Source: an uncultured Candidatus Micrarchaeota archaeon
Lineage (GTDB): Archaea > Micrarchaeota > Micrarchaeia > Anstonellales > Bilamarchaeaceae
Direction: 5' to 3'
Assembly: GCA_963800555.1 (NCBI GenBank)
Contig: CAWDBH010000008.1
Span: forward strand, 48,258-112,257
Length of the DNA stretch: 64,000 bases
A model generated the notes under the pieces. That model searched no databases, was not told the DNA's origin, and was given only the letters and a program-made list of their open reading frames with translations. Below, one piece after another: positions 7,732 to 62,246 of the stretch (its first letter is position 1; every line of letters starts with the position of its first letter). A program made the translations under genes and the position numbers.

Positions 7732-8583
7732 ATGGAAAAAAAGGCGATTGTGAAGGAATATCTAAATCTTATTCCCACAAAAGAAATCTCCTCAGAATAT
7801 GATTTACCTGTAAGCGAAGTAAAAGCCATCTTGAAAAGTTCCATGCCGTTTTCGAAATATATTCATACGTCACGCCTTATTGGAGCCAAGATGGTCAAAC
7901 GACTGCTGCAGAACCCAATCTATAGAGAAAAATATATCCGTAAAATGAAACGCTCAGTTAGTGATTCTATACTAAGACGAATGAGCGAAACCCGTTTTAG
8001 AGAAACCTGGAAAAAGAAAGCCAAATCTGGTTCGTTGAGGGGGAATGCTCGGATTTCAGAGCTTATGTCAGATTCTTCATTCTCTTCGTCGTGGTCTGCA
8101 AAGTGTTCGCTTGGTGGCCATGCAACTGCCGAGCACCAGAGAGGGATTTTCGATCCAACCCTGCATGAGGCAAGAAAATTATGGTCTCAAAAAGGCTTAA
8201 GACGGACTTCACGAAAGTATACCGGTCCCAAAAGAGAAAATATGTATAATTACCTTGAAACCAGAGTCGCGAAAATATTGATAGATGCTGGATTGAGCTA
8301 CTTATATGAAAAGCATTTTGATTCAGATACGAAAAATGGCTTCTTCAGCATCGATTTTATTGTAGAATCGTTAGACCTTGCAATAGAAGCAACCTACTGG
8401 GATAAAGTTGCAGATAAATGCTCGATTTTAAAGTCAAAATTCAAGCAATTGAAACGCCTCAACCCATCGTTTAGATTTGTGGTTGTTGCAAAAACTTCCC
8501 TCGCTGATAAGTATAAAAAGTCGTTGCCCTCTAATATCGTTGTTCTAACTCCCACAGAATTAGAACAAATGATAATGGGATGA
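7732..8583 (+). CDS. hypothetical protein with a DUF559/Vsr-like endonuclease-fold C-terminus; low-GC gene
   Basis: AT-rich relative to its neighbours. The C-terminal ...ETRVAKILIDAGLSYLYEKHF...FSIDFIV...LAIEATYWDK resembles DUF559. Confidence 0.45.
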   Translation: MEKKAIVKEYLNLIPTKEISSEYDLPVSEVKAILKSSMPFSKYIHTSRLIGAKMVKRLLQNPIYREKYIRKMKRSVSDSILRRMSETRFRETWKKKAKSGSLRGNARISELMSDSSFSSSWSAKCSLGGHATAEHQRGIFDPTLHEARKLWSQKGLRRTSRKYTGPKRENMYNYLETRVAKILIDAGLSYLYEKHFDSDTKNGFFSIDFIVESLDLAIEATYWDKVADKCSILKSKFKQLKRLNPSFRFVVVAKTSLADKYKKSLPSNIVVLTPTELEQMIMG

Positions 8584-8595
8584 ATCTCCAGGCAT

Positions 8596-8701
8596 AGCGG
8601 GGTAACAGAATCTAATGATTTAGATTCTGCCCTATGGGAAGCTTGGAGTTCCCGCTGGGCTCATAACCCAGAGATCGGTGGTTCAAATCCACTCCCCGCT
8701 A
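8596..8701 (+). tRNA. initiator-type tRNA-Met (CAU) interrupted by an about 31-nt insertion between positions 9 and 10 (non-canonical intron candidate, about 8605..8635)
   Basis: A1:U72 acceptor pair (AGCGGGG/CCCCGCT), three G:C pairs in the anticodon stem (CTGGG-CTCATAA-CCCAG), and T-arm GGTGG-TTCAAAT-CCACT. Removing acagaatctaatgatttagattctgccctat restores a canonical D arm (GGGA-AGCTTGGAGT-TCCC). The insert holds a perfect 10-bp hairpin, CAGAATCTAA-tgat-TTAGATTCTG. A T7 run follows. Confidence 0.6.
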
Positions 8702-8708
8702 TTTTTTT
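8702..8708 (+). terminator. oligo-T tract after the tRNA
   Basis: ttttttt immediately after the discriminator base. Confidence 0.4.
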
Positions 8709-8719
8709 CTTACTCTTTC

Positions 8720-9247
8720 TCAGGCAATCGTTCCGAGCGTGTAAGCTCCGAGCATGGCCAGCAGTATGTATCTCAGCACCCGCCCAGCGGCGCAGGCAAT
8801 CAAGAACTGCCACCAGGGGATATGCAACGCACCTGACGCGATGCCTGCCACATCGAAAAGCGGATTCGGGATGAAAGCGAGGACGAATATAGCGAGCAGC
8901 CCGTATTCTTTGACGAGCGCTTGGATGTCCTTGGTCTCCTTTATCTTGCTGTTGAGGAGGTCCCTGGCTCCTTCCCCCGCCATATACCCAGTCAGCTCTC
9001 CCAAGGCAGAACCGATCCCGGCCATGAGGCCGAGCAAATATGGGTTCAGGTACCTGCCCATCATCACTATGATCGCCCAGCCTGGGGCCGGAAGCAATAT
9101 AGTCGCCGAACTCAGGGCGCTTATCACGAAAGCCCCGATATATCCGTATCTCCTAAACTCAGCGATATGGTTTGAGAAATAAAGGGCAAGTGCTACGATG
9201 GCTATAGTCAGAATTATGAAAAATGCGCCCTCTACCCTCTTATCCAT
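8720..9247 (-). CDS. DedA/VTT-domain (SNARE-associated) membrane protein
   Basis: ...YGLLAIFVLAFIPNPLFDVAGIASGAL... characteristic of the DedA family. Confidence 0.8.
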   Translation of the reverse strand: MDKRVEGAFFIILTIAIVALALYFSNHIAEFRRYGYIGAFVISALSSATILLPAPGWAIIVMMGRYLNPYLLGLMAGIGSALGELTGYMAGEGARDLLNSKIKETKDIQALVKEYGLLAIFVLAFIPNPLFDVAGIASGALHIPWWQFLIACAAGRVLRYILLAMLGAYTLGTIA

Positions 9248-9504
9248 ATAATCTCCTTATGCGGTTCAGAGAATGACTTTCATCATTTTTCAGAAATACC
9301 TTTTTTCTTCATAACCGCATAAGAGAATCGCAGAGAAAGGATTTAATTGCATGGACCTCGCTTGAAACCGGGTTGATAGTCCATCTAGAGCCATAAGGCT
9401 AGTGCAGGTGAACATAATGGACTTCTACTTGACCTGCTGGCCCAGTCAGTCCACTTTTTCAAGATAAAATCGAAGGTCTTCTCTGTGGAGTTAGAAAGAA
9501 AAAG

Positions 9505-9576
9505 TGGACTTGGGGGGACTCGCACCCCCGGCATCTCGCATGCAAAGCGAGCGCTCTGCTGCTGAGCTACAAGCCC
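9505..9576 (-). tRNA. tRNA-Ala (UGC) with atypical D and T loops
   Basis: GGGCTTG acceptor with the G3:U70 Ala identity pair; anticodon arm CTCGC-TTTGCAT-GCGAG; but T loop TGCGAGT (G at position 55) and D loop AGCAGCA lacking GG18-19; followed by CTTTTTC. Confidence 0.55.
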
Positions 9577-11680: not shown

Positions 11681-11811
11681 TGCCGAGGGGGGAATTTGAA
11701 TCCCCGACCTCTCGATTTCTCGAGTGCATAATATCATCGGCATGATGCCTCATCACTCATCGGGTTTGCACCTATGAGTCGAGCACTCTCAACCAGCTGA
11801 GCTACCTCGGC
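11681..11811 (-). tRNA. elongator tRNA-Met (CAU) with a 56-nt intron at the canonical 37/38 position (intron about 11717..11772)
   Basis: Exon 1: GCCGAGG-TA-GCTC..GAGT-G-CTCGA-CTCATA. Exon 2: A-TCGAG-AGGTC-GGGGA-TTCAAAT-TCCCC-CCTCGGC-A, with a perfect acceptor stem. The intron carries GUGAUGA and GAUGA motifs. The track ORF 11529..11756 overlaps this tRNA and is spurious. Confidence 0.75.
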
Positions 11812-12565: not shown

Positions 12566-12676
12566 TCATCTCGTTATATGAAGGAACACCATATATTCTT
12601 TGCGCCTCTTGAAGGGCATGCGTGCTCCGGAACGGCACCCGCCCTTTTTATTCTCTTCATCGGATATCTGGACTGG

Positions 12677-15600
12677 ATGGCGGTTCCGTATTCTGATATG
12701 CTGCGTGATGGGCTGCAGAAAGCCTATGCTGTCGCGAGCGAAGCCAGGGCGAAAGGGCTGGACCCGAGCGACGAGATAGAAGTGAAGCTCGCAAAAGACG
12801 TCGCGGCCCGCGTGGAAGGTATCGTCGGACCCCCGGGAGTCGCGGACCTGATCCGCTCCCTCGAAGCGGGTGGCATGTCCCGCGAGGACCTGTCATTCGA
12901 GGTCGCGAGGAAGATAGCCTCCGGCGAGGTCATGGAGGGGGACAAAACCGCTCTCATGGAGCAGGCAGTCCGCACGGGCTTGGGCATAATCACCGAAGGA
13001 GTCCTGGTCGCGCCCACCGAAGGCATAACGCACGTCAAGATAAAGCAGAATCCGGACGGCAGCGATTATCTGGCCATCTATTTCGCAGGCCCTATCCGGA
13101 GCGCGGGCGGCACGGCTGCTGCGCTCAGCCTCGTCCTCGCGGATATAGTCCGCAGGATATGCGGTGTCGGGGATTACAGGGCGACGGATTCCCAGATCAT
13201 GCGCTATATCGAGGAGGTCATGGTCTACGAGAACCGCGTCTCCCACCTCCAGTATATGCCGCACGAGGAGGACATGAAGATCATACTCGCCAACTGCCCG
13301 GTCTGCATCGATGGCGATCCCACGGAGGATGTCGAGGTGTCCGCCTATCGCGGGGTGCCAGGCGTCGAGACCGACCGCGTCCGTGGCGGCGTGCCCCTCG
13401 TGCTGTGCGAAGGCGTCGCGGCGAAGGCGTCCAAGCTCCTCAAATACACCAAGAAGCTCAAGCTCGGCTGGGACTGGCTCGAGAAAGTGATCAAGATAAA
13501 GAAAAAGGCCGACACGGTTGAGATCAAGCCGGATCCGACATATCTGGAAGGATTGGTCGCGGGACGCCCGGTGTTCGCGCACGCCAGCGCCAAAGGCGGA
13601 TTCCGCCTGCGCTATGGCAGGAGCAAGACGAACGGCCTGATGGGCCGCAACGTCCATCCAGCTACGATGCTGCTTCTGGATAATTTCCTGGCCTACGGCA
13701 CGCACATGAAAGTGGAGCGGCCTGGCAAGGGCTGCGTGGTCGCCGCGCATGACGGCCTCGAGCCTCCTGCGGTCCGCTTGAAATGCGGCCGGGTGATGAA
13801 GGTCCGCACGCTGGATGAAGCGGAGAAGATAAAGAGCGATGTCGAGGAGATCCTTTTCCTGGGGGACATACTGGTCACCTACGGAGATTTCCTGAAATCG
13901 AACCATCCCCTCATGCCTTCAGGGTATTGCGAGGAATGGTGGCAGAGGGAACTGGAGGCCAAGGGAGTGCAGGCGCCGCAGAACCGCGACGCGAAATCCA
14001 TGTTCGAGCTCTCCCGTCTCCACGGAGTGCCTCTGCATCCGGACCACACGTTCCACTGGCATGATATCACCCCAGACCAGATCCGCTCCCTGGCGCAATG
14101 GCTCAGGGCAGGCCAGTTGGATATGGAAGGCGGAGCCATCAGCTCCCTCAAGCTCCCCAAATCCGACGCGAAACGGGTCCTCGAAGAATTGATATGCGAG
14201 CACCGCGTCAATGAAGGCACGATCGTCCTGGAGAGCGACATCGCGTTCGCATTGCTATCCTCCTTGGGATGCCTCGTTGACGGGAAGATCGAGACGTTCG
14301 CGTTCGACCAGGCATGGGATGCGTCTAAAGCGCCTCTCGCGTTGGTGAACGAGCTCTCAGGGATCTCCATCAAGGCAAAAGCGCCGACTTACATAGGCGG
14401 CAGGATGGGCAGGCCGGAGAAGGCGAAGGAGCGCGCCATGGAAGGCTCGCCGCACGTGCTTTTCCCGACCGGCTCCTTCAAGAACCGTAGCATCTCAAAG
14501 CAATACCGCACGCTGAAGAGCCGGGAAGGCGAGAAGACGCTCAATCTGGAGCTCGTGCGAATGCGCTGCACCAAATGCAAGCGGCTCGGATACACCCGCA
14601 GGTGCGAGGTATGCGGAGAGCGCGCCCTGGAGGAGCGGGTTTGCCACAAATGCGGCAGGATCGTGGAAACCGAGATCCACTGCGACATGAAGACCCTGCC
14701 CTATGATGTGCGTCCCGTGGACGTGGTGACGCTTTTCGAAGGGATAAAGGACCGGCTCGGCATCCTTCCGGATGACGTGAAAGGCGTGAAAGGACTCTCG
14801 AACATGTCCAAGATACCCGAGAGGCTGGAGAAGGGGTTCCTGCGGTCCAAGCACGGGGTTTTCGTGTTCAGGGACGGGACCTCCAGATTCGATGCGACAG
14901 ATGTCCCGCTAACGCATTTCACTCCTCACGAGGTCGGCTTGAGCCTGGAGAGGGCCCGGGAGCTAGGCTATGAGAACGATTATCTGGGCAACCCTCTCGA
15001 GAACGGGGAGCAGCTACTCTCCTTGCGTCATCAGGACATAATCCTGGCTGAAGCCGGATATCAGTACTTCACCAAGGTCTGCAATTTCATAGACGAGATG
15101 CTGGTCAATTTCTATGGCCAGAAATCGTTCTACAACATCAAGAGGAGGGAGGATTTGATCGGGCACCTTGCTGTCGGATTATCACCTCACACCAGCGCCG
15201 GCGCCCTCTGCCGCATAATCGGATTCACCAAGGCCACGGTCGGATATGGGCACCCATATTTCCATACCGCCAAAAGAAGGAACTGCTTCCATGGTGATGA
15301 GACCATCATGGTCCACGACGGCAAATGTTTCAGTCATATGCGCATGCGAGACCTCGTCCAGTCCAATCTGAATGGGAGGATAGAGAAAGACGATTTCGGT
15401 ACAGAATACAAGATGGTTAGCGGGCTCAAGACATTCGCATTCAACAAGGACACAAAAAGGTTCGAGCTCGCGGAGATAACACATGTCTCCAAGCATATCG
15501 CACCATCCAAGCTCATGGAGATAAAAACGAAAAGCGGGAGGCGGATCCGCGTCACATCCGATCACCCGTTCCCGAATTCCTCAGGCCATAAAATCCCGGC

Positions 15601-17422
15601 TTCGGATGCCTCCGAACTCCTCTCTCCGTGGAATATAGAGAACTGCGCTGAGAACGATACGCGCTCTATACCCCTCCTTCCAATCGCAGGGGAGGGCGCT
15701 ATGATACGGACCGATGAAGAAATCTTCCCAGACGCGCAGCTATCAGATATAAGCCGCTCTCTCGGCATGAGCTACAAGACGTTCACCAATTACTCCTATC
15801 GCGGTTCCTATCCAATAGGGCTCATACGCAGATTCAGGCCATCCATTCTAGATGGAAAATACAAGCTCGGCAGCAAACGGGACAGGGTATCGCTGAACCC
15901 AGACGTGCAGGTCGATGATCCCCTACTCTCCATCTTAGGTTTTTATATCGCGGAAGGGTATATGAGGAAAACCCAGGTGAGGACGAATCAGGTTGCCATC
16001 ACCGCCACCAAGAGATGGGCCAAGAGATATCTTGCCAGCACGATAGAAGAGGTATTCGGCATTAAGCCTGCCATATGCGAGAACCAAGTGGTCATCTGCT
16101 CGAGGATAGTCCGCGAGCTATTCTCACGCTTGGAGATAGGTTCGGATGCCTATTCGAAACGGGTGCCTGGATTCATCTATTCATTGCCGAAAGGGAAACG
16201 GCACGCATTCCTCAGGGGATACTTCTCAGGAGATGGTTCATGTTCCCTCCAGAGTACCTTGGAAGTGAATGTGACGTCAGTCAACAAACCGCTCATAGAT
16301 GCTGTCTCGTATCTCCTTCTCTTCTCCGGGATAAAGCATTCCATACAAGAGGAAAAACGTTTCATCACCAGCGGTCAGGTATATGAATTCTATGGCAAGC
16401 CCAAAGAGTGCCACTCCTACAAGATACGCATCTTCGGAGAGCAAGCCCGGAGGTTCATCCAGGATATCGGTTTCCTTGATGAGAAGCACGCTCATGCCGT
16501 GAAATTGCTTGACAAATGGCTCAAGAAAAGGGGTACCGGGCGCACGAGATTCGATGGCGACGCATTCTCAGACAAAATCGTCTCTAAAAAAGAGATAGAC
16601 TCTGACGAACGCCATGTATACAGCCTCACGGTTTCTCCTCATCATACACTCATATGTTCAGGAGTTATAACAAATCAGTGCGATGGGGATGAAGATTGCG
16701 TGATGCTGCTCATGGACGCGTTCCTGAATTTCTCCCGCAAGTACCTGAACGAGAAGCGCGGGGGCACGATGGATGCGCCATTGGTGCTCTCAATGGAGAT
16801 AAACCCCAAGGAGGTGGATGACGAGGCGCATTGCATAGAGTTCGTCTGGAAATATCCTCTGGAGTTCTACCAGGCGGCGGAGCGGTTCGCATCGCCCGGA
16901 GAAGTCAGGCTCAAGACCGTGAAGGACGTGCTCGGCACTCCGGAGCAGTTCGAGCTCCCGATAACGCATATCGGCGGAAGCATTGATGTGGGGAACTGCC
17001 GCACGGCCTATGTGCTCCTGAACTCCATCCCGGAGAAGATCGATATCCAGTTCAGGCTCCAGGAACGACTCCGCCCGGTGGACCAGCGCGATGCGGCCGA
17101 GCGGTTGATACTCAGCCATTTCATCCCAGACCTCTACGGCAACCTACGTTCGTTCTCGAGGCAGACCTTCCGGTGCGTGTCATGCAACAACATCGCTCGG
17201 AGGGTCCCGCTCTCAGGCCGGTGCGCCAAATGCGGCGGAAACCTCCTGCTCACTATAAACAAGGGCGGGATAGTGAAGTACCTGGAGATATCCAAGGAGA
17301 TCGTGCGCCGCTACGACCTGCCGGATTACCTGAAGCAGAGGTTAGAACTCGTCGGCAAGGAGATAAAGAGCATATTCGAGGATGACAAGATAAAGCAGAC
17401 CGGTCTCAGTGAATTCCTATAA
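12677..17422 (+). CDS. polC: DNA polymerase II (PolD) large subunit DP2, containing a 465-aa intein
   Basis: The N-terminus MAVPYSDML..GLQKAY..ARAKGLDPSDEIEV..A.DVAARVEGIVGPPGVA matches DP2 N-termini. The intein sits at the conserved AKRRN|C...Q|CDGDED site. C-terminal Zn-finger cysteines are present. The extein is about 1116 aa. Confidence 0.9.
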   Translation: MAVPYSDMLRDGLQKAYAVASEARAKGLDPSDEIEVKLAKDVAARVEGIVGPPGVADLIRSLEAGGMSREDLSFEVARKIASGEVMEGDKTALMEQAVRTGLGIITEGVLVAPTEGITHVKIKQNPDGSDYLAIYFAGPIRSAGGTAAALSLVLADIVRRICGVGDYRATDSQIMRYIEEVMVYENRVSHLQYMPHEEDMKIILANCPVCIDGDPTEDVEVSAYRGVPGVETDRVRGGVPLVLCEGVAAKASKLLKYTKKLKLGWDWLEKVIKIKKKADTVEIKPDPTYLEGLVAGRPVFAHASAKGGFRLRYGRSKTNGLMGRNVHPATMLLLDNFLAYGTHMKVERPGKGCVVAAHDGLEPPAVRLKCGRVMKVRTLDEAEKIKSDVEEILFLGDILVTYGDFLKSNHPLMPSGYCEEWWQRELEAKGVQAPQNRDAKSMFELSRLHGVPLHPDHTFHWHDITPDQIRSLAQWLRAGQLDMEGGAISSLKLPKSDAKRVLEELICEHRVNEGTIVLESDIAFALLSSLGCLVDGKIETFAFDQAWDASKAPLALVNELSGISIKAKAPTYIGGRMGRPEKAKERAMEGSPHVLFPTGSFKNRSISKQYRTLKSREGEKTLNLELVRMRCTKCKRLGYTRRCEVCGERALEERVCHKCGRIVETEIHCDMKTLPYDVRPVDVVTLFEGIKDRLGILPDDVKGVKGLSNMSKIPERLEKGFLRSKHGVFVFRDGTSRFDATDVPLTHFTPHEVGLSLERARELGYENDYLGNPLENGEQLLSLRHQDIILAEAGYQYFTKVCNFIDEMLVNFYGQKSFYNIKRREDLIGHLAVGLSPHTSAGALCRIIGFTKATVGYGHPYFHTAKRRNCFHGDETIMVHDGKCFSHMRMRDLVQSNLNGRIEKDDFGTEYKMVSGLKTFAFNKDTKRFELAEITHVSKHIAPSKLMEIKTKSGRRIRVTSDHPFPNSSGHKIPASDASELLSPWNIENCAENDTRSIPLLPIAGEGAMIRTDEEIFPDAQLSDISRSLGMSYKTFTNYSYRGSYPIGLIRRFRPSILDGKYKLGSKRDRVSLNPDVQVDDPLLSILGFYIAEGYMRKTQVRTNQVAITATKRWAKRYLASTIEEVFGIKPAICENQVVICSRIVRELFSRLEIGSDAYSKRVPGFIYSLPKGKRHAFLRGYFSGDGSCSLQSTLEVNVTSVNKPLIDAVSYLLLFSGIKHSIQEEKRFITSGQVYEFYGKPKECHSYKIRIFGEQARRFIQDIGFLDEKHAHAVKLLDKWLKKRGTGRTRFDGDAFSDKIVSKKEIDSDERHVYSLTVSPHHTLICSGVITNQCDGDEDCVMLLMDAFLNFSRKYLNEKRGGTMDAPLVLSMEINPKEVDDEAHCIEFVWKYPLEFYQAAERFASPGEVRLKTVKDVLGTPEQFELPITHIGGSIDVGNCRTAYVLLNSIPEKIDIQFRLQERLRPVDQRDAAERLILSHFIPDLYGNLRSFSRQTFRCVSCNNIARRVPLSGRCAKCGGNLLLTINKGGIVKYLEISKEIVRRYDLPDYLKQRLELVGKEIKSIFEDDKIKQTGLSEFL
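15284..16678 (+). other. intein within polD DP2 (Hint domain plus LAGLIDADG homing-endonuclease motifs; C-terminal Gln)
   Basis: Begins CFHGDETIMV and ends SGVITNQ followed by the extein Cys. It carries the LAGLIDADG-like blocks LLSILGFYIAEGY and HAFLRGYFSGDGS. A C-terminal Gln is known for the Pyrococcus abyssi PolII intein. Confidence 0.8.
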
Positions 17423-24080: not shown

Positions 24081-24185
24081 ACGGGCCTGGTGAGATTTGA
24101 ACTCACGACACACGGATTTCACCTTTTAGGAAAAGATTTCCTTCAGATAAGAGTCCGTCGCTCTACCAAGCTGAGCTACAGGCCC
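24081..24185 (-). tRNA. tRNA-Lys (CUU) with a 31-nt canonical (37/38) intron (about 24117..24147)
   Basis: GGGCCTG-TA-GCTC-AGCTTGGTA-GAGC-G-ACGGA-CTCTTA[intron]A-TCCGT-GTGTC-GTGAG-TTCAAAT-CTCAC-CAGGCCC-G. A TTTTATATTG box lies about 30 nt upstream and a T-rich tail follows. Confidence 0.75.
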
Positions 24186-39092: not shown

Positions 39093-39697
39093 CCCTTCCT
39101 GTCTTTTTTGTTGAGGATCTCCTTTCCCATATCCGCTCTTCTCTTCATGTTCTCCTTCATCTGGGTCAGCTCCTCAGGATTCGCGACCTTCGTGAGGATA
39201 TATCTCTTGTATTCTGCCGTGGTGGCCGACATGTTGCCGAGGAGGTTATGCGCCTCGCTCAGCGGCAGCTTGATCTCGTCAGGCCTGAGTATCTCGGTGC
39301 TGAAAGGGCTGTTCGTCATGCAGATGCTGGCGAGCGTGTTGAAATCGATCGTGAGTATCTTGACGATAACGGAGGTGGTCCAGTTCATGTTCTTCTCACC
39401 GCCTACGGGCTCGTTTATCTCTCCGAGGGCGTATACCACGCCTTGCTTGGCGATCAAGGTGTTGACGAATCCTGTCCCGAGCTCCTGCACCATCTCTTTG
39501 GTGGCCGCATGCACATCGAAATAAAGCATGGCCAGCACACCGCCGTTGGCGATGGTCTCTTTAGTTACTTTCTCGACATCCATATCAAACACTCTGCCTT
39601 GCTCCAGTACGGAGCGTTTAAACAATCGCAATCTGCTTATTTCCAGAATATCCTTTATTAATACCCCCCAGACATTCTTTCTATAGGTGCTAATCAT
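39089..39697 (-). CDS. hypothetical protein co-transcribed with the KaiC-like ATPase
   Basis: 202 aa; ATGA overlap with the downstream KaiC-like gene. Confidence 0.45.
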   Translation of the reverse strand: MISTYRKNVWGVLIKDILEISRLRLFKRSVLEQGRVFDMDVEKVTKETIANGGVLAMLYFDVHAATKEMVQELGTGFVNTLIAKQGVVYALGEINEPVGGEKNMNWTTSVIVKILTIDFNTLASICMTNSPFSTEILRPDEIKLPLSEAHNLLGNMSATTAEYKRYILTKVANPEELTQMKENMKRRADMGKEILNKKDRKG

Positions 39698-41009
39698 GTG
39701 TGCATGGAAAAACGAGAGGCAAGGACGCCCCAGAAGACCCCAAAGCGAAGGTGCTCCGCAGAGAGAAAGCGGTCAAAGAAGCCCGGCAAGTTCTGATCAA
39801 GGAAACCCGCGGCCATCCTACAATCGCGAGAGGAGATACCCTCCACGAGAAGGAAGGGGCGGTGAAAGATACACTCCAAGCGAAGGCGCTCCACGGCGTG
39901 AAGGCGGTGAACGGAGATACCCTCCGCGTGAAGGGGAAAGGAGATATCCACGCGAAGGAAGCCATCAAGGGGGCGAGAGAAGATATCCTCCACGCGAAGG
40001 TTTCCAGAGGGGTGAAGGTGGAGGCGAAGTGCGGGAAGCGAACAGGCCCTACGCGAGCGGTGAAAGGAGATACCCTCCACGCCAGGTGGATCGCCGAGAA
40101 GGCGGTTTCCGCGGCCCGCCAAGAGAAGGCGGATACTCGAAGCCTCCGATCCCGAACGACCGTGGCGGATATGACCGCGCCATGAAGCGCGAGAGGTTCA
40201 TGTCACGATCCAAGGAAAGCGTGATGGAAGCGCTGAGGAGCAGGGACATGCTCCTCGCCAGCGTGACCAAGGCGCAGGACGACCTGGACAAGACGATCAA
40301 CCTCCTCGGCGAGAGGCTCGAGGACTGGTACGGCATCTACTTCCCGGAGCTGCGCGCGGAGGACAAGCTCAAATACGCGGAGGTCTCGCTCATAATAGAC
40401 CGGGAGAATTTCGATGAGAGCACAGTGCTCGCGATACTCGGCCCCAAGGCAGCCGCCGGGCTCTCCGAAGCTTCCAAGAAGAGCCTCGGCGCGAAGATAT
40501 CTCCGAAGGATCTCGACCAGTGCAAATCGCTGGCGAGGACCGTCGTCTCCTTGGACACGCTCCGCAGGGAATACGGGACCTACCAGAAGGAGATCGCCCT
40601 GGAGCTATGCCCGAACCTCACGGCGGTCGGAGGGTACGAGATCGCCGCGAAATTGGTTTCCCACGTGGGTTCGCTTGCGAAGCTGGCGATACTTCCGGCA
40701 AGCGCCATACAGGTGCTCGGAGCCGAGAAGGCGCTTTTCAAGCACCTCAAGAACCGGAACATCCCTCCGCCCAAGCACGGCATCATCTTCCAGCATCCGA
40801 AGATCTCATCTTCGCCAAGGATGGTCCGCGGGAAGATCGCCCGCGCCCTCGCGAACAAGCTTTGCCTCGCCGCCAAGGCGGACGCTTTCAGCAAGCGGGA
40901 CATCTCCGCTGATTTGAAGACCGGTTTCGAAACGCGGTTCGCGCAGATCATGAATCAGTACGAGAGCGCCAAGGCCAAAGGCCAGGTGCCGCGGGCCCCG
41001 GAAGAATGA
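39687..41009 (+). CDS. Nop-domain protein (Nop5/Nop56/58-like) with an N-terminal Arg/Gly/Pro/Glu-rich decapeptide-repeat extension
   Basis: C-terminal NOP domain ...LTAVGGYEIAAKLVSHVGSLAKLAILPASAIQVLGAEKALFKHL...HGIIFQHP...; the N-terminal about 165 aa are degenerate GERRYPPREG repeats. TATA tttattaata at 39653-39662. Confidence 0.7.
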   Translation: MLIMCAWKNERQGRPRRPQSEGAPQRESGQRSPASSDQGNPRPSYNRERRYPPREGRGGERYTPSEGAPRREGGERRYPPREGERRYPREGSHQGGERRYPPREGFQRGEGGGEVREANRPYASGERRYPPRQVDRREGGFRGPPREGGYSKPPIPNDRGGYDRAMKRERFMSRSKESVMEALRSRDMLLASVTKAQDDLDKTINLLGERLEDWYGIYFPELRAEDKLKYAEVSLIIDRENFDESTVLAILGPKAAAGLSEASKKSLGAKISPKDLDQCKSLARTVVSLDTLRREYGTYQKEIALELCPNLTAVGGYEIAAKLVSHVGSLAKLAILPASAIQVLGAEKALFKHLKNRNIPPPKHGIIFQHPKISSSPRMVRGKIARALANKLCLAAKADAFSKRDISADLKTGFETRFAQIMNQYESAKAKGQVPRAPEE

Positions 41010-41013
41010 TCGG

Positions 41014-41637
41014 ATGAGGATCCTGGCAGTGTCCGATATCCACGAGGAGGAAGCCGCGCTCGAATCGATCGCCGCGCTTTCATCGTCATACGATCACGTT
41101 TTCGTGTGCGGGGACATCTCGCGCAGCGTCTCGTTCGCGGAAGAGCTAATGAGAATCCCCAACGCGTTCATAGTCCCGGGCAACTGGGACAACGAGCAGG
41201 TGGGTCAGGCCCTTTCGAAATCCGCGCATTACGTTCATGAAAAGCGCGTCGAGATCGAGGATGGCCTGAACGTCGTGGGATTCGGATATGCGCCTCCGAG
41301 CCCGTTCTTCACGTACGGGGAGATCAGCGAAGAGGAGATATACTCCAGGATGAAGAAGCTGAAGATAGATGGCAACACTTTACTGCTGATGCATTCGCCT
41401 CCGAAAGGCTACCTCGACACAGGGTCATTGGGAAGGCACATCGGGAGCGAATCGATACTGAGAATCATCCAGGAGAAGAAACCGCTAGCCGCGTTCTTCG
41501 GCCATGCGCACGAGGCGCTCGGCATCGAGGAGCTGGACGGGACCACGCTCGTGAAGATCCCGCCTGCCAATTCAATGCGCGCCTGCGCGGTCACCGAAAT
41601 GCGTAAAAGAATTCACGCGGAGTACATATCGCTATGA
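41014..41637 (+). CDS. metallophosphoesterase (calcineurin-like)
   Basis: DIHEEE...VCGDIS...GNWD...HSPP...GHAHE motif series. Confidence 0.75.
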   Translation: MRILAVSDIHEEEAALESIAALSSSYDHVFVCGDISRSVSFAEELMRIPNAFIVPGNWDNEQVGQALSKSAHYVHEKRVEIEDGLNVVGFGYAPPSPFFTYGEISEEEIYSRMKKLKIDGNTLLLMHSPPKGYLDTGSLGRHIGSESILRIIQEKKPLAAFFGHAHEALGIEELDGTTLVKIPPANSMRACAVTEMRKRIHAEYISL

Positions 41638-42082: not shown

Positions 42083-42155
42083 GGGGAAGTGAGCCAACCT
42101 GGTATGCTGCTAGCTTTGGGAGCTGGTTATCTGAGTTCAAATCTCAGCTTCCCCA
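42083..42155 (+). tRNA. tRNA-Pro (UGG)
   Basis: GGGGAAG/CTTCCCC acceptor, anticodon arm CTAGC-TTTGGGA-GCTGG, T-arm CTGAG-TTCAAAT-CTCAG, followed by ttttattttt. Confidence 0.8.
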
Positions 42156-44258: not shown

Positions 44259-45452
44259 ATGAACAAGGTGGATATATACGACTTTCAGCGCAGGCTAGAG
44301 CAAGCGATGGATAAGCTCAGGAAAGATAATATAGGCACGGAAAATATTCGCGATATATCCTCATTCTCCAAAATCAAGCTTGCCAAGGGAGTATCGCCCG
44401 GAAGGGCTGCCAAGATAATCCATTGCCTCCGATTGTTGGCAAAACGGCTCAGAAAACCCTTCAGGCAAGCCACAAAAGACGATTTGATTGCCCTAGTCGG
44501 AAATCTCGAAAGAAGCGACTATGCTGAGCATACAAAGTACGACCTAAAGGTCATGCTGAAAATGTTCTACAAATGGCTCAAAGGAAATGATGAATCCGCC
44601 CCTCCGGAAATCGCTTGGCTGAAGAAAAGCAAGAAAAACCTAAACCATAAGCTCCCCGAAGACCTGTTAAGCGAAGACGAAGTCCTTCAGATGGTCGAAG
44701 CCGCGATAAACCCTCGCGATAAAACCCTGATTTTGGTATTATACGAGACTGGCTGCCGGATTGGTGAACTCCTATCCTTACAGATGAAAAACGTCAATTT
44801 TGACCAATATGGCGCGGTTCTGAGGGTAACTGGTAAGACTGGCGACCGGAGGGTTCGGATTATCAGTTCAGCGCCGGTTCTGGCCTCCTGGCTCAATGCC
44901 CACCCTAGGGCTAATGATCCGGACGCCTGGCTATGGTTCCAATACAAGAATAACAAGAAAACCGATAAGTGCCTGAGGCATGGAACGGTTTATGCGACGC
45001 TCAAGAAGATTGCCAAGAGGGCTGGAATCCAAAAGAAGGTATATCCTCACCTTTTCAGGCATTCAAGAGCTACGGCCCTGGCAAACAAGCTGACGGAAGC
45101 CCAGATGAAAGAACATTTCGGTTGGGTCCAGGGTTCTGAGATGGCGGCTACCTATGTTCATCTATCAGGCCGGGATGTGGATAACGCTTTCTTGAAAATA
45201 CATGGTCTGGTTCAAGCTGAGAACGCTCAAGAAGAAAAACTAAAGCTCAGAATTTGCCAGCGGTGCAAGGATCATAACTCTCCAAGCTCGAAGTTTTGCA
45301 CAAAATGCGGTTTGCCTCTGGACGAACAAACGATGGCTATGATTGAGAATAAGCGGGAGAAGAGCGACAATCTCATGAACAAGCTGATGGACGATGAGGA
45401 ATTCAAGAATTTTATGATGAAGAGGATTGCCGAATTGAGGCTAAATCTTTGA
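44259..45452 (+). CDS. tyrosine recombinase / integrase with a C-terminal zinc ribbon
   Basis: Catalytic R..HLFRHSRAT...Y pattern (R, H-x-x-R, Y) and a C-terminal CQRCK...CTKCG. Confidence 0.85.
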   Translation: MNKVDIYDFQRRLEQAMDKLRKDNIGTENIRDISSFSKIKLAKGVSPGRAAKIIHCLRLLAKRLRKPFRQATKDDLIALVGNLERSDYAEHTKYDLKVMLKMFYKWLKGNDESAPPEIAWLKKSKKNLNHKLPEDLLSEDEVLQMVEAAINPRDKTLILVLYETGCRIGELLSLQMKNVNFDQYGAVLRVTGKTGDRRVRIISSAPVLASWLNAHPRANDPDAWLWFQYKNNKKTDKCLRHGTVYATLKKIAKRAGIQKKVYPHLFRHSRATALANKLTEAQMKEHFGWVQGSEMAATYVHLSGRDVDNAFLKIHGLVQAENAQEEKLKLRICQRCKDHNSPSSKFCTKCGLPLDEQTMAMIENKREKSDNLMNKLMDDEEFKNFMMKRIAELRLNL

Positions 45453-61818: not shown

Positions 61819-62246
61819 GGTATTTGAGGCGTTCCGCCCCCTTCGTACATAATGCGTTAAAAACTCTATCAATCCATATTGATATAGAAACGGTTATGCT
61901 CATCTTGGGAGAGTGCCGGAGTAGTCTAACGGGCTGGTTTTGCAAACCAGTGGCTTAGTGCCTTCGTGGGTGCAAATCCCACTTCTTATTGCATTTAGCG
62001 TCAGCCAGCAAGGAAGCGAAGCGATGCCGCGACCAGCGCACCGACCACGCTCACGGTGAGCGCACTGCGACACAATTTCTTTATCCTTAATGCGGGATCG
62101 GATTAGCGGCCGGCCCCGCAGGCGGGGCACGTACGGAAGAGCGCTGCCGGGCGCCCTGGGAAAAGATTGATTCTGAGAGAGCCGAGGATACGATTCCACC
62201 GGGTCATTCACCACTGAGGCTTCCCTCTTAGCTATGTAAGTTCGTA

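Follow-up and report, generated by a model that had tools for sequence, protein, structure and literature searches.

A probable 31-nucleotide intron between positions 9 and 10 of an initiator tRNA-Met gene from Micrarchaeota

Introduction

Archaea are known to have non-canonical introns and relaxed splice motifs, tRNA genes with more than one intron and initiator tRNAs that are disrupted (PMC3239211 and PMC8450103 among other sources). In ARMAN-2 (Candidatus Micrarchaeum acidiphilum), 56% of the tRNA genes are interrupted, and the three-unit splicing endonuclease of this organism cuts both strict and relaxed motifs in biochemical assays (PMC3239211). Thermoproteales, as far as the account of Sugahara et al. 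2008 given in PMC4090602 goes, have tRNA genes with several introns, including one at position 3/4 in the acceptor stem, and an (alpha-beta)2 endonuclease. Here we describe an interrupted gene in a stretch of 64,000 nucleotides (nt) from an uncultured Candidatus Micrarchaeota archaeon (contig CAWDBH010000008.1); this whole stretch is called the window below. The gene, at window positions 8596-8701, is very probably a functional initiator tRNA-Met gene of the Micrarchaeota (DPANN), with a 31-nt archaeal intron at tRNA positions 9/10 that is spliced by proteins.

Initiator identity and the spliced product

Archaeal initiator tRNAs are marked by the A1:U72 pair, three G:C pairs at 29-31:39-41, the anticodon CAU and a purine11:pyrimidine24 pair. 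The window gene has all of these. In the acceptor stem, AGCGGGG at 8596-8602 pairs with CCCCGCT at 8694-8700, A1:U72 being A8596:T8700, and A8701 is the discriminator. The anticodon stem CTGGG/CCCAG (8655-8659/8667-8671) contains the G29-31:C39-41 pairs as GGG 8657-8659 and CCC 8667-8669. G11:C24 corresponds to G8637:C8652, and the T-arm reads GGTGG-TTCAAAT-CCACT. CCA is not encoded at the 3' end; the discriminator is directly followed by a run of T, a likely archaeal transcription stop. From 5' to 3', the locus consists of the leader ending in ...ATCTCCAGGCAT, the 5' exon AGCGGGGTA, the intron ACAGAATCTAATGATTTAGATTCTGCCCTAT, the 3' exon (GGGAAGCTTGGAGTTCCC G CTGGGCTCATAACCCAG AGATC GGTGGTTCAAATCCACT CCCCGCT A) and TTTTTTT. 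A1:U72 is given as an initiator feature in PMC8450103 and also in a passage of PMC5393177.

The match of the Rfam tRNA model to the unspliced gene is limited to 8636-8693 (31.8 bits, model positions 10-63), and ARAGORN finds no tRNA in the unspliced sequence with the intron option either on or off. Deletion of 8605-8635 leaves a sequence of 75 nt, which ARAGORN calls tRNA-Met(CAT). This predicted spliced product is identical at 75 of 75 positions to the uninterrupted gene of Candidatus ainarchaeum sp. STA_81 (L025), which matches Rfam tRNA positions 1-71 with 59.4 bits.

An earlier note on this DNA had named A1:U72, GGG/CCC, CAU and a good T-arm as initiator hallmarks, and each of them is found where that note had placed it. 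Its count of about 52 nt between the acceptor and anticodon stems is exact (8603-8654). Its proposal that removal of 8605..8635 recreates a textbook D arm is borne out by the identity to L025 and by the tRNA call of ARAGORN after the deletion. It had also located the insert in the D region; the boundaries were right, but the site, 9/10, is the junction of the acceptor and D stems and lies outside the D-loop.

Geometry of the splice motif

In the standard layout of the 37/38 intron, the cuts are made 2 nt 3' of each strand of a helix of 4 base pairs (bp), within a 3-nt bulge. With this rule, all pairs of cut sites in the gene were scanned. Only the register 8604/8605...8635/8636 combined 4/4 pairs in the central helix (H), an abutting 10-bp hairpin (h') and a tRNA as the product. 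Helix H is formed by GGGG, which is G4-G7 of the tRNA, and CCCT near the 3' end of the intron, and it includes one G-U pair. The 5' bulge has 3 nt, T8603, A8604 and A8605 (UA/A). The hairpin h' begins 1 nt past the 5' cut and ends directly before CCCT, so that it abuts both the bulge and H. The perfect 10-bp hairpin of the earlier note is thus present, at 8606-8615/8620-8629. The pairing of GGGTA (8600-8604) with TGCCC (8628-8632), which the note had also suggested, offers no valid cleavage register: it is out of register and overlaps the hairpin, and GGGG/CCCT fits instead. Introns at 8607-8633 and 8606-8634 would keep H, but their products are no tRNA. The pairs of h' have probabilities of about 0.9-1.0 in the fold of the full pre-tRNA and of 0.70-1.0 in truncated folds, in which the first pair has 0.70. 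The predicted exon junction is AGCGGGGUA/GGGAAGC (that is, AGCGGGGUA/GGGAAGCUUGG), and a circularised intron would have the junction ...GCCCUAU/ACAGAAUC....

The following course of splicing is proposed. In the precursor, G4-G7 of the 5' exon would pair with CCCU near the 3' end of the intron and form H, while the 10-bp hairpin of the intron would serve as h' and U8, A9 and the first A of the intron as the 3-nt 5' bulge. With A-U-G10 at the 3' site and an outer helix that is weak or missing, a relaxed HBh' motif would result. The tRNA splicing endonuclease, presumably of the three-unit epsilon2 type of this phylum, which tolerates relaxed motifs, would cut 2 nt past each strand of H, namely after A9 and before G10. 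A ligase of the RtcB type would then join the exons. After ligation, G4-G7 could pair again with C66-C69, which would complete the acceptor stem.

A query made of the ARMAN-2 sequence fragments in the 4FZ2 PDB alignment retrieved at least 1,416 homologues of the three-unit endonuclease of ARMAN-2. The best 120 of these are 368-406 amino acids long and cover 97-100% of all three units; where these 120 carry the name of their source, it is mostly Micrarchaeota, with a few Marsarchaeota and one Nitrososphaerota. The enzyme step is well grounded for the phylum, and by analogy it would hold for the window genome.

Two other explanations concern the insert itself. When the precursor is folded from position 1, that is, with no leader, a cloverleaf is obtained with the hairpin as an additional arm. 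This fold is consistent with a tRNA that retains the insert and works with an extra arm between positions 9 and 10. However, an arm at this site would disturb the U8-A14 and position-9 tertiary contacts, and intron-less orthologues have an identical mature sequence, which means that the arm is dispensable. Furthermore, cleavage requires both the 3-nt spacing that follows G7 and the conserved CCCU with 2 nt between it and G10, neither of which an arm would call for. We consider a retained insert very improbable. Group I introns are reportedly present in archaea, Micrarchaeota included, and a self-splicing intron of group I or II, or a mobile insertion sequence, might also be considered. A ribozyme core takes hundreds of nucleotides, and an insert of 31 nt falls far short of either kind of element; the locus has no match to an Rfam intron family, and the insert has neither coding capacity nor terminal repeats. 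The probability of this explanation seems to be negligible. Splicing by proteins is the reading followed below.

Conservation and covariation of the intron

Among relatives found through the neighbouring VTT-domain gene, all have an intron at the same site and the intron sequences differ. A scan with the D-arm sequence GGGAAGCTTGGAGTTCCCRCTGG over one genome per species gave 27 loci, one per genome, of which 22 are assigned to Micrarchaeota or a member genus and 5 only as "archaeon". A scan of metagenomes for the interrupted form gave 7 further loci. In total, 35 distinct complete initiator tRNA genes were parsed; 15 have the 9/10 intron (29-37 nt) and 9 are intron-less.

Fourteen distinct genes with the 9/10 intron were aligned for covariation. 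In this alignment, 88% of the cells of the proposed structure are paired, and 96% of those of helix H. In hairpin h', 7 of the 10 pairs change on both sides, for example from G-C to A-U and from A-U to U-A. On four of five measures, none of 500 shuffles came up to the values observed; on the fifth, further pair types, 136 of 500 did. When the partners are slid by 1-3 columns, pairing falls to 23-55%. The exons of intron-bearing genes have compensatory variants in the T-stem (GGTGG/CCACT, GGTAG/CTACC and GTTGG/CCAAT).

These data bear on the possibility that a 31-bp insertion inactivated the gene and that a second, intact copy does the work, an alternative of which the earlier note had raised the disrupted pseudogene. 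The failure of standard finders on the unspliced gene would be in keeping with it. However, the insert occurs at the same site in 15 distinct orthologues and has exact splice geometry; the exons are invariant or change in a compensatory manner over the 35 distinct genes, whereas the insert varies and its hairpin is compensatory. The promoter box and the T-run terminator are also kept. A covarying hairpin between constant exons means that selection acts on the splice structure and that the gene is no pseudogene. As to the second copy, each of the 27 Micrarchaeota genomes has a single gene with the matching D-arm, and in many of them it is interrupted. The concern of the note that no other initiator copy may exist is therefore probably justified: the window gene is probably the sole copy, with the intron-bearing form functional. 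We regard inactivation by the insertion as very unlikely. The note's other proposal, a non-canonical archaeal intron, agrees with the cleavage geometry, with the identity of the product to L025 and with the covarying intron in 15 distinct orthologues.

The orthologues have further introns at 30/31 (32-138 nt), at 43/44 (25-44 nt) and in the T-loop (31-110 nt); a single gene has at most three. They are found at loci L004, L007, L011, L014-L018, L020, L022, L024, L026, L027, L030-L033, L036, L038, L039 and L043. L022 and L023 have near-identical leaders, and the former has only the 30/31 intron and the latter only the 9/10 intron. L025 has no intron, whereas its relative L031 has two. Since the intron content differs in this way between close relatives, gain and loss seem to be fast.

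A side observation was made at two other orthologous loci. In L019 and L023, a second copy of the tRNA 3' end lies about 150-200 nt downstream of the initiator tRNA, after a TATAAAAA box (GGTTCAAATCTACCCCC...). In L023 the copy is complete, with trailer; in L019 it is cut to ...CCCCCGTTA. The arrangement resembles that left by a small inserted element whose attachment site has been duplicated.

Several points weigh against a protein-spliced 9/10 intron. A strict hBHBh' motif has an outer helix of at least 2 bp, and here the only contiguous outer pair is C3:G11 (C8598:G8637). With this single pair, the motif is a relaxed HBh' and not a strict one; the BHB-compatible (bulge-helix-bulge) structure that the earlier note had called for is thus present in the relaxed form only. 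One orthologue, L016 (JACRGB010000005.1), has a 32-nt insert at 9/10 (AGATGATTCAGTAAATGAATTGTCTCTCGAGA) that is out of register with the other 14 introns. No EndA was detected by tblastn with the M. jannaschii EndA over the window and about 300 kilobases of related loci, and neither EndA nor RtcB was found in Pfam scans of 26 open reading frames (ORFs) from the window and related loci; for the window gene, the part of these enzymes, the cutting and the sequence of processing steps are inferred. Finally, helix H competes with the stronger acceptor stem in the full precursor; its predicted probability, 3e-5 when the leader is left out, reaches 0.03-0.07 when the leader is included.

A possible role of the 5' leader

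The competition arises from the fact that G4-G7 of helix H are the same bases that pair with C66-C69 in the mature tRNA. Since H takes these bases from the acceptor stem, the precursor seems to need help from upstream. This leads to an extension of the splicing reading, which we put forward as a possibility of somewhat less than even weight: the upstream sequence would reshape the precursor and present the intron to the endonuclease, and splicing would precede 5' trimming. Two designs can be envisaged. In the lineage of the window, a conserved leader of about 55 nt would place its CUCCA(R)G(Y) block (CUCCAGGC) on the D-loop, supply the outer helix and make up for the acceptor and D stems that are lost. 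In other lineages, the decoy would be a copy of the 5' exon, AGCGGGG, which would occupy the 3' acceptor strand and leave G4-G7 free for H.

The leader is probably transcribed, as judged from its promoter. In most genes with a CTCCARGY leader, a TTATAAA/TATAAA box lies 74-88 nt upstream; in three it lies at -52 to -59, and in other gene classes at 41-77 nt. With the usual archaeal spacing between TATA box and start, the box of the window gene would place the start near 8539-8542 and give an unusually long leader of about 55 nt. The promoter had at first been sought in A/T-rich stretches at -20 to -30, but the canonical TATA box at about -84, which is conserved, took their place.

The aligned leaders have in common a 5' hairpin, a CTGGG block and a CTCCA(R)G(Y) block. 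The arms of the hairpin, TTCTRAC...GTYAGRA, recur in the aligned orthologues. CTCCA is invariant in 17 distinct leaders with variable flanks, and the substitutions in the block (A to G and C to U) retain the pairing with the D-loop as G-U. In predicted folds, a discontinuous outer helix arises if 8586-8593 of the leader pairs with 8641-8648 across a purine-rich internal loop. The minimum free energy (MFE) fold of 8577-8655 consists of the leader helix, C3:G10/11, H, the UAA bulge and h'; it has z = -4.24, and 0 of 200 dinucleotide shuffles was as stable. In the full precursor with leader, the structure constrained to form H lies 2.6 kcal/mol above the minimum.

The native 40 nt upstream raised the predicted probability of H from about 90-fold to more than 100,000-fold in all 14 orthologues tested. 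Among shuffled leaders, 0-17 per 100 reached the native probability, depending on the orthologue. For the central helix of the 30/31 intron, the leader usually had no effect; in four genes the effect was 2- to 11-fold, and it did not exceed about 11-fold.

For the second design, L009, L016, L017, L032, L036 and L042 have the 5' exon sequence, AGCGGG(G)TA, copied in part or in full 0-21 nt upstream of the gene. In L017 and L032 the copy forms a perfect tandem TAGCGGGGTA repeat. The whole-precursor MFE folds of L009, L036 and L016 have the leader copy on the 3' acceptor strand and the exon GGGG on the intron, as expected for a decoy. All six 9/10-intron genes that lack the full CTCCARGY block have an AGCGGG(G) copy. 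A leader feature of either type is present in 15 of 15 genes with the 9/10 intron and in 9 of 20 without it (Fisher p = 4e-4), and an exon copy in 6 of 15 and 0 of 20 (p = 0.003); these counts ignore shared ancestry, which inflates the significance of both.

Other findings speak against such a role. Eight genes that have no 9/10 intron, one of them intron-less (L025), also have the CTCCARGY leader; the leader may therefore serve a function beyond this intron. The shuffled leaders that were as good as that of the window amounted to 7% (21 of 300 and 7 of 100). The D-loop partner never varies, and this makes a true covariation test impossible. The exon copies upstream might be no more than inert remnants of recombination or of the gain of an intron, and the transcription start is itself derived from the spacing rule. 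Nor is the involvement of a flank new in principle, since tRNAscan-SE scans 60 nt of flank for introns near the ends (PMC8450103). On balance, that the 9/10 intron depends on the leader through two unrelated designs, a block pairing with the D-loop and a decoy of the 5' exon, is a tentative proposal that we regard as rather doubtful. If it is true, splicing of the sole initiator tRNA must precede 5' trimming, and the leader would be a built-in folding guide for an essential RNA.

Two other roles for the leader were tried and rejected. The CUGGG block was considered as a decoy for the 30/31 intron of the orthologues, and the probability of the central helix of that intron was unchanged in most genes. 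A role as a C/D-box guide RNA directed at the D-loop was dropped, as no D box (CUGA) follows the complementary block.

It should be noted that an ORF of 283 amino acids at 7732-8583 (+) overlaps the TATA box and the leader and ends 12 nt before the tRNA. It has no Pfam match, and of the relatives only the closest one (L002/L003) shares it with the window. At the same spot, L009 has an unannotated gene of 299 amino acids, and L011 has a weak LAGLIDADG-like gene upstream of the tRNA.

Features of the locus and its surroundings

The features of the gene and its leader are collected in Table 1.

Table 1. Features of the initiator tRNA-Met locus, in window positions
Feature	Position	Strand	Basis
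Probable TATA box (TATAAA)	8512..8517	+	Read from sequence; -84..-79 from tRNA position 1
Hairpin at 5' end of leader, GTTCTAA 8542-8548 / TTAGAAC 8560-8566	8542..8566	+	Inverted repeat in sequence
Leader block CTCCAGGC, candidate strand of outer helix h	8586..8593	+	Complementary to D-loop GCTTGGAG, one G-U
5' exon, tRNA positions 1-9 (AGCGGGGTA)	8596..8604	+	Same as positions 1-9 of uninterrupted L025
5' strand of helix H, GGGG (tRNA G4-G7), also part of mature acceptor stem	8599..8602	+	Geometry scan
31-nt intron ACAGAATCTAATGATTTAGATTCTGCCCTAT at tRNA positions 9/10	8605..8635	+	Predicted cuts A8604/A8605 and T8635/G8636
Intron hairpin h', 10 bp, 8606-8615 / 8620-8629, loop TGAT	8606..8629	+	Perfect pairing
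3' strand of helix H, CCCT, followed by A8634, T8635 / G8636 (3' splice site)	8630..8633	+	Geometry scan and orthologues
3' exon, tRNA positions 10-73, D-arm to discriminator A	8636..8701	+	Rfam partial match; same as L025 positions 10-73
D-loop segment GCTTGGAG, partner of leader block in precursor	8641..8648	+	Predicted folds
Anticodon CAT	8662..8664	+	Sequence; ARAGORN on spliced form
T run, seven T, directly 3' of discriminator	8702..8708	+	Read from sequence

Downstream of the gene, a VTT-domain gene lies at 8720-9247 on the minus strand, with close homologues in Candidatus Micrarchaeota bins. The window shares with these bins the gene order DNA polymerase II large subunit with intein, zinc-ribbon, VTT, tRNA, AlaX-like and ribose-5-phosphate isomerase. 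The intein in the DNA polymerase II (PolD) large subunit (12578-17422, +) contains a LAGLIDADG homing-endonuclease domain, as it does in most syntenic relatives; the PolD large subunit of L011 has no intein or LAGLIDADG match. Between the VTT gene and a normal tRNA-Ala (9505-9576), a weak sub-threshold match (about 22 bits) to the archaeal C/D-box RNAs sR44/sR17 is found at 9264-9316 (-). A Nop56/58 gene is located at 39696-41009 (+), followed by an ORF of 207 amino acids at 41014-41637.

Four of the seven tRNA genes of the window are interrupted or aberrant. The other tRNA with the anticodon CAU, at 11681-11811 (-), has G1:C72 and C11, and is therefore of the elongator or Ile2 type. It has a 58-nt intron in the anticodon loop with UGAUGA (C-box-like) motifs. 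tRNA-Lys(CUU) at 24082-24185 (-) has a 32-nt intron at 37/38. ARAGORN labels both of these wrongly as tRNA-Ser. At 61907-61990 (+) there is an odd tRNA-like sequence of 84 nt (37 bits), in which the variable arm is long, the acceptor stem is weak and rich in G-U and the apparent anticodon is TGC. The normal tRNA-Ala has this anticodon too; the tRNA-like sequence lies at the far end of an island of low GC content. This island (38-45% compared with about 54%) extends to about 60 kilobases and encodes Schlafen/AlbA-type and MmeI-like methylase-related proteins; before it, tRNA-Pro (42083-42155) is followed by a tyrosine-integrase gene (44259-45452). The segment 42083-61990 looks like an integrated element.

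Discussion and comparison with known systems

The presence of this intron has practical consequences for annotation. The training set for the splice-motif models of tRNAscan-SE 2.0 consisted of Crenarchaeota, Euryarchaeota and Thaumarchaeota (PMC8450103). Together with the miss by ARAGORN and the partial match of Rfam, this means that the initiator tRNA may be reported missing from Micrarchaeota bins. Such a report would affect completeness scores and claims of gene loss for the reduced DPANN genomes. With regard to biology, an essential and probably single-copy initiator tRNA would here rely wholly on protein-mediated splicing. The introns of this gene, 0-3 at four sites, are gained and lost quickly between close relatives, and the family is a convenient natural series for the study of intron gain and loss. 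If the dependence on the leader is true, it would be a simple case of flanking RNA that steers substrate recognition by the archaeal splicing endonuclease.

The position 9/10 is absent from the intron positions listed in a review (PMC4090602), a list that is non-exhaustive and ends in "etc.". A literature search that did not cover the primary surveys found no description of a 9/10 intron or of an intron in a Micrarchaeota initiator tRNA.

ARMAN-2 (PMC3239211; 4FZ2, PMC3488258) belongs to the same phylum and likewise has short non-canonical introns with relaxed motifs. The abundance of interrupted tRNA genes is also common to both (56% in ARMAN-2 and 4/7 in the window), and homologues of the three-unit enzyme are abundant in the phylum. 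The sites published for ARMAN-2, however, are 59/60, 53/54 and 37/38, and the relaxed motif tested was hBH, whereas the window gene has its intron at 9/10 with an HBh' motif. In addition, the central helix of the window gene borrows four nucleotides of the acceptor stem, and the gene is that of an initiator tRNA, unlike the ARMAN-2 examples.

With Thermoproteales, the family shares the variety of intron positions (here 9/10, 30/31, 43/44 and the T-loop) and the occurrence of up to three introns per gene. As in the 3/4 intron of that group, an intron near the 5' end necessarily involves nucleotides of the acceptor stem. The phylum and the architecture of the endonuclease are different.

The split tRNAs of Nanoarchaeum equitans and the permuted tRNAs resemble the proposed leader pairing, in that a leader or trailer outside the mature tRNA pairs to present a relaxed motif. 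Furthermore, the permuted tRNA-iMet of Thermofilum pendens places an initiator tRNA among the disrupted genes. Split tRNAs are spliced in trans and permuted tRNAs are circularly permuted; the window gene, in contrast, is collinear, and the pairing with the leader would occur within one transcript.

Compared with the canonical 37/38 intron, such as that of the window tRNA at 24082-24185, the enzymes are presumably the same and the cleavage rule is the same. In the canonical case the outer helix is the anticodon stem and the cloverleaf stays intact, whereas the 9/10 intron must transiently unpair the acceptor stem. The intron of the window gene is real and conserved; it adds a further case to a phenomenon that is already known and does not stand for a new type of intron.

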